The position numbers were made by a program, and so were the translations under genes. A DNA stretch of 64,000 nt from Candidatus Bathyarchaeota archaeon. Its GTDB lineage: Archaea > Thermoproteota > Bathyarchaeia > Bathyarchaeales > Bathycorpusculaceae. Location: positions 2,592,001-2,656,000 of the forward strand of contig OY969706.1 of NCBI GenBank assembly GCA_963702095.1, read 5' to 3'. The notes under the pieces are model-generated. The model searched no databases. It was not told the DNA's origin and was given only the letters and a program-made list of their open reading frames with translations. Shown here one piece after another: positions 40,097 to 45,958 of the stretch (position 1 is its first letter; each line of letters begins with the position of its first letter).

Positions 40097-41008
40097 CTAA
40101 ATAAACTCTAAGTCTTTTTGATAGGGCAAACCTGCTCGAGCACCCATCGCCGTCACGGATTTGGAGGCGACAAAGTTGCCAAGTCTGCCGCATTCAGCGA
40201 GGGTTCTGTTGTGGGTTAAGCCGTAGAGGAACCCTGCGTTAAAGGCGTCTCCTGCGCCTGTCGTGTCGACCACGTTGACTTTGAAGGCTTGTATGGAGAG
40301 TTTTTCTTCTCCGTCCGTGATGTAGCAACCTTTGGCTCCGAGTTTCACGGCGACGACTTTGACGCCGGCACTGAGCAGCAGTTCGGCGCCTTTGGGGACG
40401 TCGGATTCGCCTGTTAAAAGTTCAAGCTCCACTGCGTTTGGCATCATAATGTAGCTGTTCTGGATTATGGGTTCGATAGCGGCAAAACCTTTCTGTGCAT
40501 AGAGTGAGCCAGGGTCGAAGCTAAGTTTGACGCCCTCAGGTAGGAAGCTGAGCAGTTTCTTCTGGGTTCGAAACGATTTCTCCCCGACAAAAGAGGACAG
40601 GTGCAAAAAATCTGTTTGGAAAACATAGTTAGCCTGTAATTCGCGGAATTCGATGCTGTCATTGACGCCTGAATTGATGTAGAGTGCTCGTGCGCCTTTT
40701 TTGTCTACGAATCCGAGGCAGACGCCGCTTTTGCCCTTGGATGCGTGGATAATGCCTTCGGTGTCGACGCCCTCGGTTCTAAAGCAGTCGATTTGGAGTT
40801 GGCCCTGGTGGTCGTCGGCGACTTTGCCGATGAACCCCACTTTGCAGCCCAACCGTGCCAAAGCGACCGTGGTGTTGGCTGCTGAGCCACCGCATGCTTC
40901 GGTGTAGTCATGGATGAAACTCTCTTCTTCAGCGCCCGCTATCTTGTCGACTTTTAGCAGTGTGTCGACGTTGAGTGCTCCGAAACCGATTACGTCAAAT
41001 TTGGTCAT
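40097..41008 (-). CDS. PfkB family carbohydrate/nucleoside kinase
   Basis: GGSAAN..VALARLG, SFDPG, PN..E, VDTTGAGDAFNAGF. Confidence 0.93.
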   Translation of the reverse strand: MTKFDVIGFGALNVDTLLKVDKIAGAEEESFIHDYTEACGGSAANTTVALARLGCKVGFIGKVADDHQGQLQIDCFRTEGVDTEGIIHASKGKSGVCLGFVDKKGARALYINSGVNDSIEFRELQANYVFQTDFLHLSSFVGEKSFRTQKKLLSFLPEGVKLSFDPGSLYAQKGFAAIEPIIQNSYIMMPNAVELELLTGESDVPKGAELLLSAGVKVVAVKLGAKGCYITDGEEKLSIQAFKVNVVDTTGAGDAFNAGFLYGLTHNRTLAECGRLGNFVASKSVTAMGARAGLPYQKDLEFI

Positions 41009-41928
41009 TTGAATATCTCGTTTAAGGGGATTTTGTATTGGCCGAGTTTGCCGCCGTAGTTGCCGGCGGATATGCGGACGACGCCTGGGACGTTGATGGA
41101 GGCTTCGATTCCCGCTTTGGTTGCGGCTTTGATTGCATCAACTGAGATGCCGTCGTAGACTATTTCGGCTATATAGTTTACGCCGTCTGGAACCAGCGAT
41201 TGCGTGCCTAATTTGGTTTTCAATGATGGACAGTAGAGTTGGTTAGTTGTTGGCCCAATCTGCGGGTAATGGGTTTGTGGTTTGCTGCCCGCTGAACAAA
41301 TGTCAAAGGTGGTTACTGCACCGTACACTTTATGGATTGCCCTGAGTGCTCTGCCGCCCGCTTCCTTTAGCGCCTCTTTGGTGGTGCACATAAGCCAAAA
41401 GTTGCCACCCATCACTCCGCGGGCATAACCCACGTAGCGTTCGATAACAAAATCGGGAACCATCAAGGGAACAACGATGACTTCTCGGTCATACCGCTTT
41501 TCAACCCATTCATAGCCGTCGCCACAGTGCCCCACACGCTCCATCATGTCCAATTTGCCCTCAGCCCTAGGCATGGCGTCGTAGACGGCGGTGAAGGATT
41601 TAACCAATATGTCTTGGCGGATGCGGTAACTGAGCTCCTTCTCAAATTTTTCGAGGGATTCCTCGAAGGTTTTCTTGGAGCTTATTTCTCCCCACAACTG
41701 CAGGATGGCGCCGACTCTGCCGTCGGGGGTTTCTTTTTCGGTGAGGTAGCGTTCGACGCCGCCTTCTGTTCTGCCGACGACGACTGCGGGGGTTGCGGTT
41801 GAATCCTCCGCTGCTTTGCGCACGGTTTCTTGGTCGTCTGCGGTTACTATTAGGCGGCAGAAGATGCCGGCGAATGCTTCAATGAATGTATCATCAATTC
41901 TTTGGTCCATTTTATCCAAGTCTCCCAA
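41005..41928 (-). CDS. ftr: Formylmethanofuran:H4MPT formyltransferase family protein
   Basis: IDDTFIEAF, EGGVE, TPDGRVG, GGNF, SAGSK, YCPSL, EIVYDG, RISAGNYGGKLG. Confidence 0.9.
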   Translation of the reverse strand: MGDLDKMDQRIDDTFIEAFAGIFCRLIVTADDQETVRKAAEDSTATPAVVVGRTEGGVERYLTEKETPDGRVGAILQLWGEISSKKTFEESLEKFEKELSYRIRQDILVKSFTAVYDAMPRAEGKLDMMERVGHCGDGYEWVEKRYDREVIVVPLMVPDFVIERYVGYARGVMGGNFWLMCTTKEALKEAGGRALRAIHKVYGAVTTFDICSAGSKPQTHYPQIGPTTNQLYCPSLKTKLGTQSLVPDGVNYIAEIVYDGISVDAIKAATKAGIEASINVPGVVRISAGNYGGKLGQYKIPLNEIFK

Positions 41929-42994
41929 TAGCTACTCCTCTAACGTTTTTGCGGAACTCTGCGCTCTCTTTTATGAGTGCATCCACGTTTCTCAGGGATA
42001 CTAATTCCACCCGTGGAAGCGCACCGGGGTACAATGCGTAGAGCCGCTTTAATAAATCGATGTTTACTCCGCTTTGCTCCACTGCGGATTTGCACCAGTA
42101 TGAGAGGGCTTTGAGGGCTTGATTTTTGCCTAATCTGCAGAATCTGTCGGCAAGCACAGCAACTACCAAGTTGCCCTCTGCCATAACTGCGACGTCGGCG
42201 TTGCGGACGGCGTAGCTGTTGCCATTGAAAGACACCGCTAACCCGCCGAATTCACGGACAAGTTTGAAGGCTTCTACGTCGGTGATGCTGTCGCCGATGT
42301 AGATGACCTCTGAAATTTTCACGCCTAACCGACCTGTAGCGTCGCGGATAGCTTCTGCTTTTTGTTCCCCGCCGACTGTCGTCACCTCAGTCAACAGCTT
42401 ACCTGCACCCATACCAGGAAGTTCTTTATTGAAAATTTCGTTTAGACGCTGGATTACGGCTTGGTCTGCAACTGAGAAGTCAGCCACTGCCTTTGCACCC
42501 ACTGGAATTTCTATTAGGCGCATTTCTGCGATTTCTGCTGCAAGCTGCTTTAGGCGTTCCTTCTCTTCTTGGGTTACGGTGTAGTTGTCGAGTTTGACTT
42601 TGGTGCAGTAAGTGTGGTCAACGGGGAAATCGATGGATTTACACAGTGCCTTGATGTAGTGCTCGTAGCTTGTGCTGACGATGAACACTTCGGCACACTG
42701 CTGAATGTAACCGAGTGTGTCAAGTGTCTGGGGAAGTAGGAGGATGTTTTGGGCTGAGAAATCTTCCATTTGTTTGTCGGTGACATCGTAGGCTTTAAAG
42801 AAGGGCAGAATCAGCTTCAGTGTGCTGCCAGCAGTGTAGCCGGGTTTATGGAGGACATCTGCTAAGACGTCGTCGTACTTGCTGATGTTTATGAAGAGTT
42901 TGTCTCCGTTGGGGATAAAGTGGCTGCAGAGTTCGTAGGCATTGTCGTTTTTTGCTATTGGACCTTCGCAATCTGAGACAACTATTCGCTTCAT
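41912..42994 (-). CDS. HAD-superfamily hydrolase (EhaR/COG4030-like)
   Basis: DCEGP motif I, VSTSY, YIGDSITD, SFNGN. Confidence 0.85.
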   Translation of the reverse strand: MKRIVVSDCEGPIAKNDNAYELCSHFIPNGDKLFINISKYDDVLADVLHKPGYTAGSTLKLILPFFKAYDVTDKQMEDFSAQNILLLPQTLDTLGYIQQCAEVFIVSTSYEHYIKALCKSIDFPVDHTYCTKVKLDNYTVTQEEKERLKQLAAEIAEMRLIEIPVGAKAVADFSVADQAVIQRLNEIFNKELPGMGAGKLLTEVTTVGGEQKAEAIRDATGRLGVKISEVIYIGDSITDVEAFKLVREFGGLAVSFNGNSYAVRNADVAVMAEGNLVVAVLADRFCRLGKNQALKALSYWCKSAVEQSGVNIDLLKRLYALYPGALPRVELVSLRNVDALIKESAEFRKNVRGVAIGRLG

Positions 42995-44409: not shown

Positions 44410-44463
44410 AGATACACCGTTAATGCACTACTGTTTGAAAGGAACAGTTTATAGCGGTTACGG

Positions 44464-45958
44464 CTAAACCTCTTCGTTCTCGTAGATACGGCCTTTCTCT
44501 TCATAGCCCTCTTGGAACCGTTTCTTCATCGCATCCGCCATCTTCTGCGCGCAGGGCGTAGGATACTTACCTGTGACGCAGGCTAAGCAGAGTTCATCTT
44601 CCCTTTTGCCTGTGGCACGGATGAGTCCTTCGAGGGATTGGTAGCAAACTCCGTCGGCGCCAATGATCTTGGCGATTTCCGTTTCGTTGTGCCTGCTGCC
44701 GATGAGTTGGCCATAGCTGGACATGTCGATGCCGTAGAAGCATGGGCCGATGATGCGGGGGAAAGTGACGAAGACATAGATTTTTTTGGCGCCGGCTACC
44801 CGCATTTTTTCGATGATGACTTTGGTTGTGTCTCCACGTACGATGCTGTCTTCGGTTATGATAACGTTTTTGCCGGCCACTTTGGAATCTAAAATGTTTA
44901 TTTTCTTATCAATTGTCGAGTATCGCTCAGCGTTAAGCAAGATGAAAGCTCGTTCAGTAACATAGCGGTGACGCCTCGAGCAACGTTCCCAGCGCAGACC
45001 CGACTGTTCATGGACGCCCATCGCGGAGTCGTCGCCTGTCTCAGGCACTGACATGATGATGTCGCATTCTTTGGCGATTTCTGGGAATTCTTTTACGATG
45101 TTGCGTCCGAATTCTTCGCGGATTTCATAGACGTATTTGCCGTTGAAAATCGAGTCGGGCCTTGCAAAATACGCAAATTCAAAAGCGCAAAACGCAGGCT
45201 TTGGGTTAGAGATAACTTGGATACGTTTGAAACCGTCTTTTGAGGCTATGACTAGTTCGCCAGGGTTTAATTCAAAATCGCGGATGAGACTGTTCATGTC
45301 CAAACTGACGGTTTCAGAGGAAAAAGCAAGGGTTTTGCCGTCAGGGCTGTGTCCAGCGCAGAGGGGTTTTATACCATAGGAGTCTTTGAAAGCGAAAAAG
45401 TCTCCGTCGCCAGTTATGCCTATTACGCTAAACGCGCCATCTAAACCTTCCATGACCGCTTTAGCCGCCGACACTAAATCCCTGGTTTTATTATATTCAA
45501 GAAGCATCTTGTAGCAGACCAAGTCTGAGTCGCAGTTGTAAACGGCGTTTGGGAAATTCTCAAACATTTCTTTCTTCAGCGGCAAAGTGTTGACGATGTT
45601 GCCGTTGAATGACACCGCAAGTTTCACTCCGTCGCTTGAGCCCACGACTGGCTGGGTGCCTTCGATGATGGAGGCTTCGTCGCATTTGCCGGAGGTGGTG
45701 TAGCGGACGTTGCCTATGCCGACTGAACCAGGTGAGTCTGCCGAACCATTCGTTTATGGCGCTGCTTTTTACCTTCGGCACAAGGTCTAGGTTCTTGTAC
45801 ATGAAGTATTGTCCGTTGTTGTAGGTGAGGAAGCCATGTGACTGGTGACCTCGATGATTTTGCGCCCGTAGCCCCCAGTACATGTAGGGGAAAACGGGTT
45901 GATTGTCATAATTTATTGCCCCAAAGATACCGCAGCCTATTTTTGGTCCCTTCTCGCG
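44464..45958 (-). CDS. purF: Amidophosphoribosyltransferase, frameshifted near 45733; start unresolved
   Basis: CGIFG (45934), HRG, GNVRYTT across the frameshift, NGNIVN, FEFAYFARPDS, EDSIVRGDT, CFYGID, CLAC. Confidence 0.9.

Follow-up and report, generated by a model that had tools for sequence, protein, structure and literature searches.

A divergent formyltransferase paralog in a purF-purD gene cluster of a Bathyarchaeota archaeon: a candidate for the missing archaeal GAR formyltransferase

The DNA analysed here (the window) is a stretch of 64,000 nucleotides, C1:2592001-2656000, of the one-contig genome of a Candidatus Bathyarchaeota archaeon (GCA_963702095.1, contig OY969706.1; G000 in our sample), which measures 2.94 Mb and is 90% complete by marker genes. 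Five co-oriented genes on the minus strand fill positions 40097-45940 of the window: pfkB, ftr2, a gene of the haloacid dehalogenase (HAD) superfamily, purD and purF. The subject of this report is ftr2 (41005-41928), which encodes a divergent paralog of Ftr, the formylmethanofuran-tetrahydromethanopterin (H4MPT) formyltransferase, and which is proposed to encode a glycinamide ribonucleotide (GAR) formyltransferase. A first-pass annotation, made by a model from the sequence, had suggested this role from the place of the gene beside purF and purD, and had described the five genes as co-oriented, with overlaps at purD/HAD, HAD/ftr and ftr/pfkB. The co-orientation was confirmed, as were the first and the last overlap, which measure 4 nt each. 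The overlap between HAD and ftr2 depends on the start codon chosen: it is 17 nt with the TTG start at 41928 and gives way to a 1-nt spacer with the alternative ATG start at 41910, from which the 301-amino-acid form listed in the protein collection is translated. The purD gene (42991-44409), which encodes a phosphoribosylamine-glycine ligase, is separated from purF by 54 nt. PurD is divergent; the three domains GARS_N, GARS_A and GARS_C are all present and its TIGR00877 score is 235.8 bits against an equivalog cut-off of 288. Matches of CarB aside, it is the sole purD-like gene of the genome.

Elsewhere in the genome, purM lies at C1:133410, adjoined by purL and purQ, and purC precedes a tandem pair of purP paralogs (C1:611625-614799). 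A check for purN and purT, which the first-pass annotation had called for, found neither in the one-contig genome: there is no PF00551 or TIGR00639 match for purN, and the best match to the PurT model TIGR01142 (42.6 bits) is CarB. Since purF, purD, purM, purL, purQ, purC and purP are present and purN and purT are absent, the organism appears to make purines without either of the known GAR formyltransferases. A gap of this kind has been described in other archaea. In the passages concerned, Brown (2011, PMC3261824) has reported that purN and purT were not found in two Archaeoglobi, four Methanobacteriales-type species and Methanopyrus kandleri. Chadwick (2022, PMC9012536) has likewise noted, in the section on this step, no PurN or PurT in ANME-1, Archaeoglobales and Methanobacteriales, and has called for "an as yet unidentified enzyme." Another section of the same paper describes Ftr2 in ANME-1, ANME-2a/b, Archaeoglobales, M. 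kandleri and Methanothermobacter marburgensis, and the two subjects are left unconnected in these sections. Full-text searches found no literature linking Ftr2, or the Ftr-like protein EhaS discussed below, to GAR formylation, and the terms Ftr, formyltransferase and purine do not occur in PMC9635834 or PMC7886697.

Ftr2 contains the domains FTR (PF01913, 144.1–145.6 bits) and FTR_C (PF02741, 175.3 bits) and matches FTR families only, with neither the Formyl_trans_N fold nor the PurT-type ATP-grasp fold. Among curated models, it scores 325.7 with the Ftr subfamily model NF002554 (cut-off 297) and 222.4 with the fhcD equivalog model TIGR03119 (cut-off 292.6). Near relatives of this protein bear the names Candidatus Bathyarchaeia and Bathycorpusculum, from which the organism is taken to belong to the Bathyarchaeia. 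The genome also holds a canonical ftr (Ftr1) at C1:273086 (PF01913, 178.8 bits), so that the second copy sought after the first-pass annotation is indeed present, together with FwdA, MfnB and Mch. The statement that no fwd or mch gene neighbours the ftr of the window also held, FwdA lying at C1:1764173 and Mch at C1:808323. The relationship of the two copies was analysed in a tree of 83 rows, consisting of cluster representatives, the Ftr2 proteins of the fetched loci and the two Ftr copies of this genome; it was computed with IQ-TREE in quick mode, the solved Ftr enzymes not being among the rows, and its support values are SH-aLRT from a short search without bootstraps. The Ftr2 of the window falls in a clade of its own of 37 rows (SH-aLRT 97), which is sister to, and thus apart from, the canonical clade of 38 rows (SH-aLRT 99) that includes the other copy of the genome. 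Eight more distant rows fall outside both clades, and a FastTree run was concordant.

The solved and characterised Ftr enzymes (1FTR, 2FHJ and 2FHK of M. kandleri, 1M5H of Archaeoglobus fulgidus and 1M5S of Methanosarcina barkeri) are 33–36% identical to the Ftr2 of the window and have the two-lobe fold and the catalytic glutamate in common with it. The predicted model of Ftr2 (pLDDT 93.5) matches 1FTR, 1M5S, 1M5H and the FhcD subunit 6S6Y_D with TMq 0.85–0.86. The catalytic glutamate, E255 of Ftr2, aligns with E246 of 1M5H and is kept in all 36 Ftr2 and in 30 of 37 Ftr1 sequences; in the Ftr of M. kandleri it is Glu245. In FhcD it is Glu252, according to the part of PMC6926001 that deals with this enzyme. 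Unlike Ftr, Ftr2 forms a separate clade with residues of its own: besides Trp79, these are Arg104 (36/36 in Ftr2, mostly Gly in Ftr1), Cys135 (36/36, with Phe at this position in 30 of 37 Ftr1) and Gly225-Pro226 (36/36), which replaces Lys-Ala, the residue at 226 being Ala in 84% of Ftr1. It also differs from Ftr in its purine-operon context, in its occurrence in genomes without FwdA and MfnB, and in the acceptor, which is methanofuran for Ftr and would be GAR for Ftr2. FhcD, which has the same fold (TMq 0.86), transfers the formyl group from N5-formyl-H4MPT to a primary amine, and this is the direction proposed for Ftr2. The carrier on which it acts is methylofuran, bound to a complex of four subunits (as described in the relevant part of PMC6926001), whereas Ftr2 has no Fhc or Fwd partners nearby, matches 6S6Y_D with 84.7 bits and lies under the fhcD equivalog cut-off. 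PurN carries out the reaction proposed for Ftr2, but it has the unrelated Formyl_trans_N fold and takes its formyl group from N10-formyl-tetrahydrofolate; PurT acts at the same step of the pathway, but is an ATP-grasp enzyme that works on free formate. The score above the NF002554 cut-off and the retained glutamate would also suit an ordinary Ftr isoenzyme, serving for example an anabolic flux, in an organism where GAR is formylated otherwise, most plausibly by a second PurP paralog with formate and ATP. This explanation, taken up again below with the genomes that have Ftr2 only, is considered improbable.

The distribution of Ftr2 was compared with that of PurN and PurT in two samples of genomes. 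From the own-phylum sample of 301 genomes, the 80 with an Ftr match and one Bathyarchaeia genome without any (81) were tested for PurT and PF00551; Bathyarchaeia Ftr2 calls were at least 51% identical and included some fragments. Ftr2 was found in 38 of 44 Bathyarchaeia genomes, and a PurT-like or PF00551 match in none of these 38. Among the six Bathyarchaeia without Ftr2, three have a PurT-like gene (G002, G117 and G246), two a PF00551 match (G037 and G069) and one (G021) neither. Family f7 is divided in this respect: Ftr2 without PurT occurs in genus g24, and PurT without Ftr2 in genus g23. Outside the Bathyarchaeia, G280 has Ftr2 and neither alternative. Across the 81 genomes tested, PurN and PurT are absent from 39 of 40 genomes with Ftr2, and one or the other is present in 35 of 41 without it. 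The 35 genomes with Ftr1 only comprise 15 with a PurT-like gene, 15 with a PF00551 match and five with neither; three of these five are 72–82% complete and two, of family f37, are 97–98% complete. In the second sample, 201 genomes of Halobacteriota, the scores of the Ftr2 profile were bimodal: 84 genomes reached at least 381 bits, and none of the others exceeded 294. PurT was found in none of the 84 and PurN in six, so that 78 lack both, while PurN or PurT is present in 105 of the 117 genomes without Ftr2. Of five named genomes, those of Atabeyarchaeia-1, Mnemosynella, a Thermoproteota metagenome-assembled genome (MAG) and the genome of locus L072 are without PurN and PurT, and that of Methanoliparum has PurN. 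Overall, Ftr2 and PurN/PurT are for the most part mutually exclusive, and this in two phyla. The names returned by a search of Ftr2 cluster representatives included Altiarchaeota, Hydrothermarchaeota, Methanospirareceae and Syntropharchaeia, and no Methanobacteriales.

Related loci were collected from a six-row Ftr2 alignment, which gave 80 loci, 65 of them from Bathyarchaeia and none from Methanobacteriota. Among 20 loci fetched from several Bathyarchaeia families, 17 have purD, HAD and ftr2 side by side. Matches to the three lie in that order in 52 of the 65 named Bathyarchaeia loci, as counted from the order of tblastn matches within 10 kb and not from called genes. The linkage, whose conservation the first-pass annotation had proposed to check, is conserved in Bathyarchaeia and recurs in other lineages. 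Three Asgard loci, from Atabeyarchaeia and a Promethearchaeati MAG, have purF-purD-ftr2. In one of them (L074, by Pfam), the order is purQ-purL-purF-purD-ftr2, followed by an M20 peptidase gene, with neither HAD nor PfkB beside ftr2. Since the purF and purD of the Asgard loci are only 31–33% identical to those of the window, the Asgard cluster is not the same block transferred. The closed genome of Atabeyarchaeia-1 gave no match to PurT, PF00551 or the EhaR-like HAD. Locus L072 has HAD-ftr2 adjoining convergent purD and purF. Mnemosynella, of the Archaeoglobi, has purD-HAD-ftr2-pfkB with three proteins 54–64% identical to those of the window and the HAD 42% identical; its Ftr2 nests among Bathyarchaeia sequences in the tree. 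In the Halobacteriota genome G315, mch is directly followed by purM (TIGR00878, 357 bits), a HIT gene and ftr2. L181 and L182 (G315 and G337) each have a HIT-family gene close to ftr2. The ftr2 gene lies away from pur genes in a Thermoproteota lineage (L066–L071) and in L078.

The most telling result of the context analysis is a displacement in the slot after purD. In the Bathyarchaeia family f8 (G069 and G037), purF-purD, with a purD 54–55% identical to that of the window, is followed at a distance of 2 nt by a PurN-like gene of 278 amino acids and not by HAD-ftr2-pfkB. In one of these loci, the PurN-like gene lies at L192:9299-10135 and scores 76.6 bits with TIGR00639, which is under the cut-off; L193 is alike. 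In the Bathyarchaeia family f10 (G246), the cluster purQ-purL-purF-purF'-purD ends in purT (L191:3466-4869; NF006766, 471.9 against a cut-off of 339), and a genome of another class (G235) has the same layout, with purT after purD. The slot after purD is thus taken by three unrelated genes in related genomes, two of which are known GAR formyltransferases.

Genomes in which Ftr2 is the only Ftr bear on both the donor and the acceptor. There are 14 of these among the Halobacteriota, and Mch and PurD are present in all 14, FwdA in three and MfnB in four. Neither FwdA nor MfnB was found in nine of them (G315, G326, G337, G348, G379, G393, G395, G482 and G494), and in seven of the nine PurN and PurT are absent too. 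In four of the nine, contigs of 0.99–1.69 Mb equal or come close to the listed size of the genome, so that these four look complete or nearly so. Because Mch is present in these nine genomes without a route to methanofuran or formyl-methanofuran, formyl-H4MPT is suggested as the donor for Ftr2, and something other than methanofuran as the acceptor. If Ftr2 is the GAR formyltransferase, then N5-formyl-H4MPT is probably its donor, with somewhat less assurance than is given below to the role itself. The presence of FwdA in three of the 14 genomes agrees with an ordinary isoenzyme, but in the nine genomes such an enzyme would have no methanofuran substrate, and an isoenzyme leaves the purT or PurN-like gene in the slot of Ftr2 after purD unexplained. 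Formylation by a second PurP fits poorly with Atabeyarchaeia-1 and Mnemosynella, which have a single PurP match and no PurN or PurT. PurP matches were also obtained in Methanocaldococcus jannaschii, a control that bears PurT, which likewise speaks against this alternative.

The following mechanism is proposed for Ftr2. With its Ftr fold and catalytic glutamate, Ftr2 would bind N5-formyl-H4MPT, the product of Mch, and would hand its formyl group on to GAR, whose primary amine would stand in for the aminomethyl group of methanofuran. The chemistry would be that of the Ftr reaction in reverse, in the same direction as that of FhcD in methylotrophs. For the transfer of the formyl group from formyl-H4MPT to the amine of methylofuran, a value of +4.4 kJ/mol is given in the part of PMC6926001 on this reaction. 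As transfer to a primary amine is thus only about +4.4 kJ/mol uphill, energetics would be no barrier and an ATP drive would not be required; the subsequent ATP-dependent PurL step could pull the formylation forward. The C1 unit may originate in CO2, by way of Fwd and Ftr1, or in serine, by way of GlyA, Mtd and Mch, and the serine-GlyA-Mtd-Mch-Ftr2 route to formylglycinamide ribonucleotide (FGAR) would mirror the folate route, with H4MPT in place of folate. With FwdA, MfnB, Mch and Ftr1 all present in the host genome, formyl groups derived from CO2 could also enter this pool of formyl-H4MPT.

The two genes that flank ftr2 encode an EhaR-like HAD-superfamily hydrolase (41912-42994, minus strand, 360 amino acids, with weak matches to three HAD families) and a PfkB protein (40097-41008, minus strand; PF00294, 193.6 bits), a sugar/nucleoside kinase of the ribokinase-like type that is EhaT-like by position. 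An alignment of 26 HAD sequences shows the four HAD motifs, D8-x-E10-G-P, T108/S109, K212 and G234-D-S-I-T-D239, without variation. Glu occupies the second acidic position, at which most HADs carry Asp, and the C-terminal tail RGExIGxLG is conserved. The predicted model (pLDDT 92.8) is closest in fold to AF1437 of A. fulgidus (1Y8A; TMt 0.92, 26% identity), a protein with no recorded function. The next structural matches are HADs of the phosphoserine phosphatase type, with which only the general HAD-IB fold is common (TMq about 0.47). An Atlas cluster named EhaR matches the window HAD at 0.98, which is taken as a lead only. The PfkB protein is generic ribokinase-like: it scores 181.7 with the ribokinase model TIGR02152 (cut-off 299.65), and the solved structures nearest to it, at about 100 bits, belong to fructokinases and ribokinases. 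An EhaR-like HAD occurs in 79 of the 84 Halobacteriota genomes with Ftr2 and in 18 of the 117 without it, and is often far from ftr2. The order HAD-pfkB-ftr2 was seen at L184, L163, L166, L168 and L169, in Halobacteriota genomes of about 1 Mb, and in G379 and G395 this triad occurs together with PurN.

PfkB-family kinases that act on the ribosides of purine intermediates exist, the AIR-riboside kinase of Salmonella being one. This leaves room for a reading in which Ftr2 formylates another amine of early purine synthesis: either glycine, the N-formylglycine being ligated to phosphoribosylamine by the divergent PurD, or the riboside of GAR, the variant of the first-pass annotation, in which the HAD would take off the phosphate, Ftr2 would add the formyl group and PfkB would put the phosphate back, as an ATP-driven module of three enzymes. 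Such a substrate appears rather improbable, slightly more so than the isoenzyme. It would account for a PurD under the equivalog cut-off here and in several other Ftr2 genomes, for an EhaR-like HAD with all catalytic motifs, for the association of HAD with Ftr2 in Halobacteriota and for the retention of the triad, in another gene order, in four small genomes. A co-fold of Ftr2 with the HAD points weakly in the same direction and is not leaned on: its score was 0.48 (runs of 0.48, 0.48 and 0.00) against 0.00 for the best of three controls, with a partner pLDDT of at least 87 and agreement between runs in at least 0% of contacts. Of 80 solved complexes, 58 reached the mark applied to co-folds, as did two of 110 mismatched pairs; at scores of 0.60 or less, it was reached by only seven of the 80, together with both of the passing mismatches. 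Against this reading stand Atabeyarchaeia-1 and G304, which have Ftr2 but no PurN or PurT and no EhaR-like HAD, and the Atabeyarchaeia operon, where neither HAD nor PfkB stands beside ftr2; and with a formyl transfer of about +4.4 kJ/mol (same part of PMC6926001), an ATP drive is unneeded. The suggestion of the first-pass annotation that the HAD and PfkB proteins de- and re-phosphorylate intermediates found no specific support. They are taken as accessory proteins that travel with Ftr2 in most but not all lineages.

The same trio of protein types is found in Methanothermobacter as EhaR, EhaS and EhaT, the putative link to them being drawn from published descriptions and the one Atlas match. 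The settings differ, being a hydrogenase operon for the Eha proteins and a purine operon for the proteins of the window. In the part of the paper on this operon, Kaster (2011, PMC3087415) has reported that EhaS, which is Ftr-like, and EhaT, which is ribokinase-like, share a transcript with the genes of the Eha hydrogenase and are regarded as Eha subunits of unknown role. This co-transcription would fit a HAD-Ftr2-PfkB triad that had nothing to do with purines and served, for example, cofactor synthesis or the Eha hydrogenase complex, its proximity to purD being regulatory or a historical accident. The distance of ftr2 from pur genes in L066–L071, L073, L077 and L078, and a genome (G505) with an Ftr2-like gene and no PurD, would agree with this. 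It does not account for the exclusion of PurN and PurT in two phyla or for a purT or PurN-like gene in the same slot, and the arrangements purQLFD-ftr2 and mch-purM-ftr2 arose in separate lineages; a role outside purine synthesis is considered very improbable. A wider form of the proposal would make Ftr2 a third, H4MPT-dependent class of GAR formyltransferases in Bathyarchaeia, Archaeoglobi, ANME-1-type archaea, some Asgard archaea and, as EhaS, Methanobacteriales, acting in a module with an EhaR-type phosphatase and an EhaT-type kinase. Purine C8 would then be tied directly to the Wood-Ljungdahl/H4MPT C1 pool in all of these. In this full extent it is a doubtful extension. If it were true, the place of ehaRST in the Eha operon would be explained, since the anaplerotic Eha hydrogenase would refill the formyl pool drained by purine synthesis.

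Taken together, the largely exclusive distribution, the replacement in the slot after purD and the genomes without methanofuran genes agree with the central suggestion of the first-pass annotation. Its four refuting checks were run, and none of them told against the suggestion. We infer from comparative genomics, with a probability of about 0.7, that Ftr2 formylates GAR to FGAR in place of PurN and PurT, and regard it as the best candidate so far for the missing archaeal GAR formyltransferase. Several observations weigh against this assignment. The genome counts are not independent, as kinship makes the evolutionary events far fewer than the genomes. PurN is present beside Ftr2 in six Halobacteriota genomes (G302 Methanoliparum, G333, G344, G354, G379 and G395), and outside the Bathyarchaeia one genome of the own phylum (G105) has a fragment of Ftr2 together with a PurT-like gene. 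None of Ftr2, PurN and PurT was found in 12 of the 117 Halobacteriota without Ftr2 and in six of the 41 corresponding genomes of the own phylum, including the 97–98% complete genomes of f37. Two PurP matches were obtained in most of the 80 genomes tested, and in most of those with Ftr2, as in the host with its tandem pair beside purC, which would leave room for formate-dependent formylation by PurP. In the Methanoliparia loci L077 (Methanoliparum) and L073 (Methanolliviera), ftr2 stands beside a MoaA-like radical SAM gene and not beside pur genes. A 0.8-Mb genome labelled "bacterium" (G505, locus L078) has a gene of the Ftr2 clade, and no Mch, FwdA, MfnB, PurD or EhaR-like HAD was found in it, a combination that fits no explanation offered here. 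The purF of the cluster is frameshifted in this very assembly. Finally, formyl-methanopterin (N10) was not believed to be a functional donor in the relevant passage of Brown (2011, PMC3261824). As to the surroundings of ftr2 in L078, its neighbours are tsf-, rpsB- and efp-like by reading of the open reading frames (ORFs), and a beta-eliminating lyase gene by Pfam.

If the assignment is true, the only step of purine synthesis in archaea still lacking a gene would receive one, and GAR formylation would gain a third, unrelated enzyme class. H4MPT would then serve biosynthetic formylation besides energy metabolism. Labelling results quoted in Brown (2011, PMC3261824), in the passage on this carbon, place the origin of purine C8 in acetate C2 in Methanosphaera stadtmanae and not in Methanobrevibacter smithii. 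These results might be reconciled if C8 passed through formyl-H4MPT in both organisms, coming from serine in M. stadtmanae and from CO2 in M. smithii. Thousands of genes named "formylmethanofuran-H4MPT formyltransferase," and the metabolic models derived from them, would need correction.

The identity of purF was upheld, with the correction that it is not a single open frame in this assembly: one extra base near 45733 splits the gene between an N-terminal part in frame A (45734-45940) and a C-terminal part in frame B (44464-45732), both on the minus strand. The gene encodes amidophosphoribosyltransferase and is the only purF of the genome. It is the best purF match there, with a runner-up at 109 bits; its TIGR01134 match scores 279.8 bits against a cut-off of 350 and covers model positions 64–432 only. 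The translation of frame A runs ...KIGCGIFGAINY...EWFGRL, after which the frame is lost. Three relatives (L046, L047 and L053) have an uninterrupted purF frame at the position of 45733 and run on as ...EWF[GS]RLPGS[VI]GI[GA]NVRYTTSG. The frameshift could reflect a mistake in the assembly or a true lesion of the gene. The catalytic cysteine is present in frame A (GCGIFG; codon 45934-45932). Between the upstream stop and this codon (45932-45958), the window has no ATG, GTG or TTG, and the only start candidate of translation table 11 before the cysteine is ATA at 45940-45938. The gene may start at ATA or at another unusual codon, or the region may have been miscalled. The residues that precede the cysteine vary across four relatives (KIG, SIG, TTG and KIG).

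A decayed form of the cluster was seen in L149 (G441:C1:2416380-2420282) and also in L158, where an intact ftr2, 69% identical to that of the window, is present. In L149, ftr2 lies between 54 amino acids left over from the C-terminus of the HAD and a remnant of pfkB, which departs from the intact sequence after about 43 residues, and the ORF upstream is integrase-like by eye, without a family search. L149 looks like a transferred Bathyarchaeia block that later decayed. The notion that HAD and PfkB are dispensable, drawn from these remnants, was dropped because an intact EhaR-like HAD lies elsewhere in that genome. On either side of the cluster in the window (46407-48477 and 37767-39750) are genes for a flavodoxin, an acetyl-CoA decarbonylase/synthase gamma subunit (NF003195, 583 bits), a flavodiiron protein of the FprA type and a protein disulfide oxidoreductase, and cdhG and FprA also border the cluster in several relatives.

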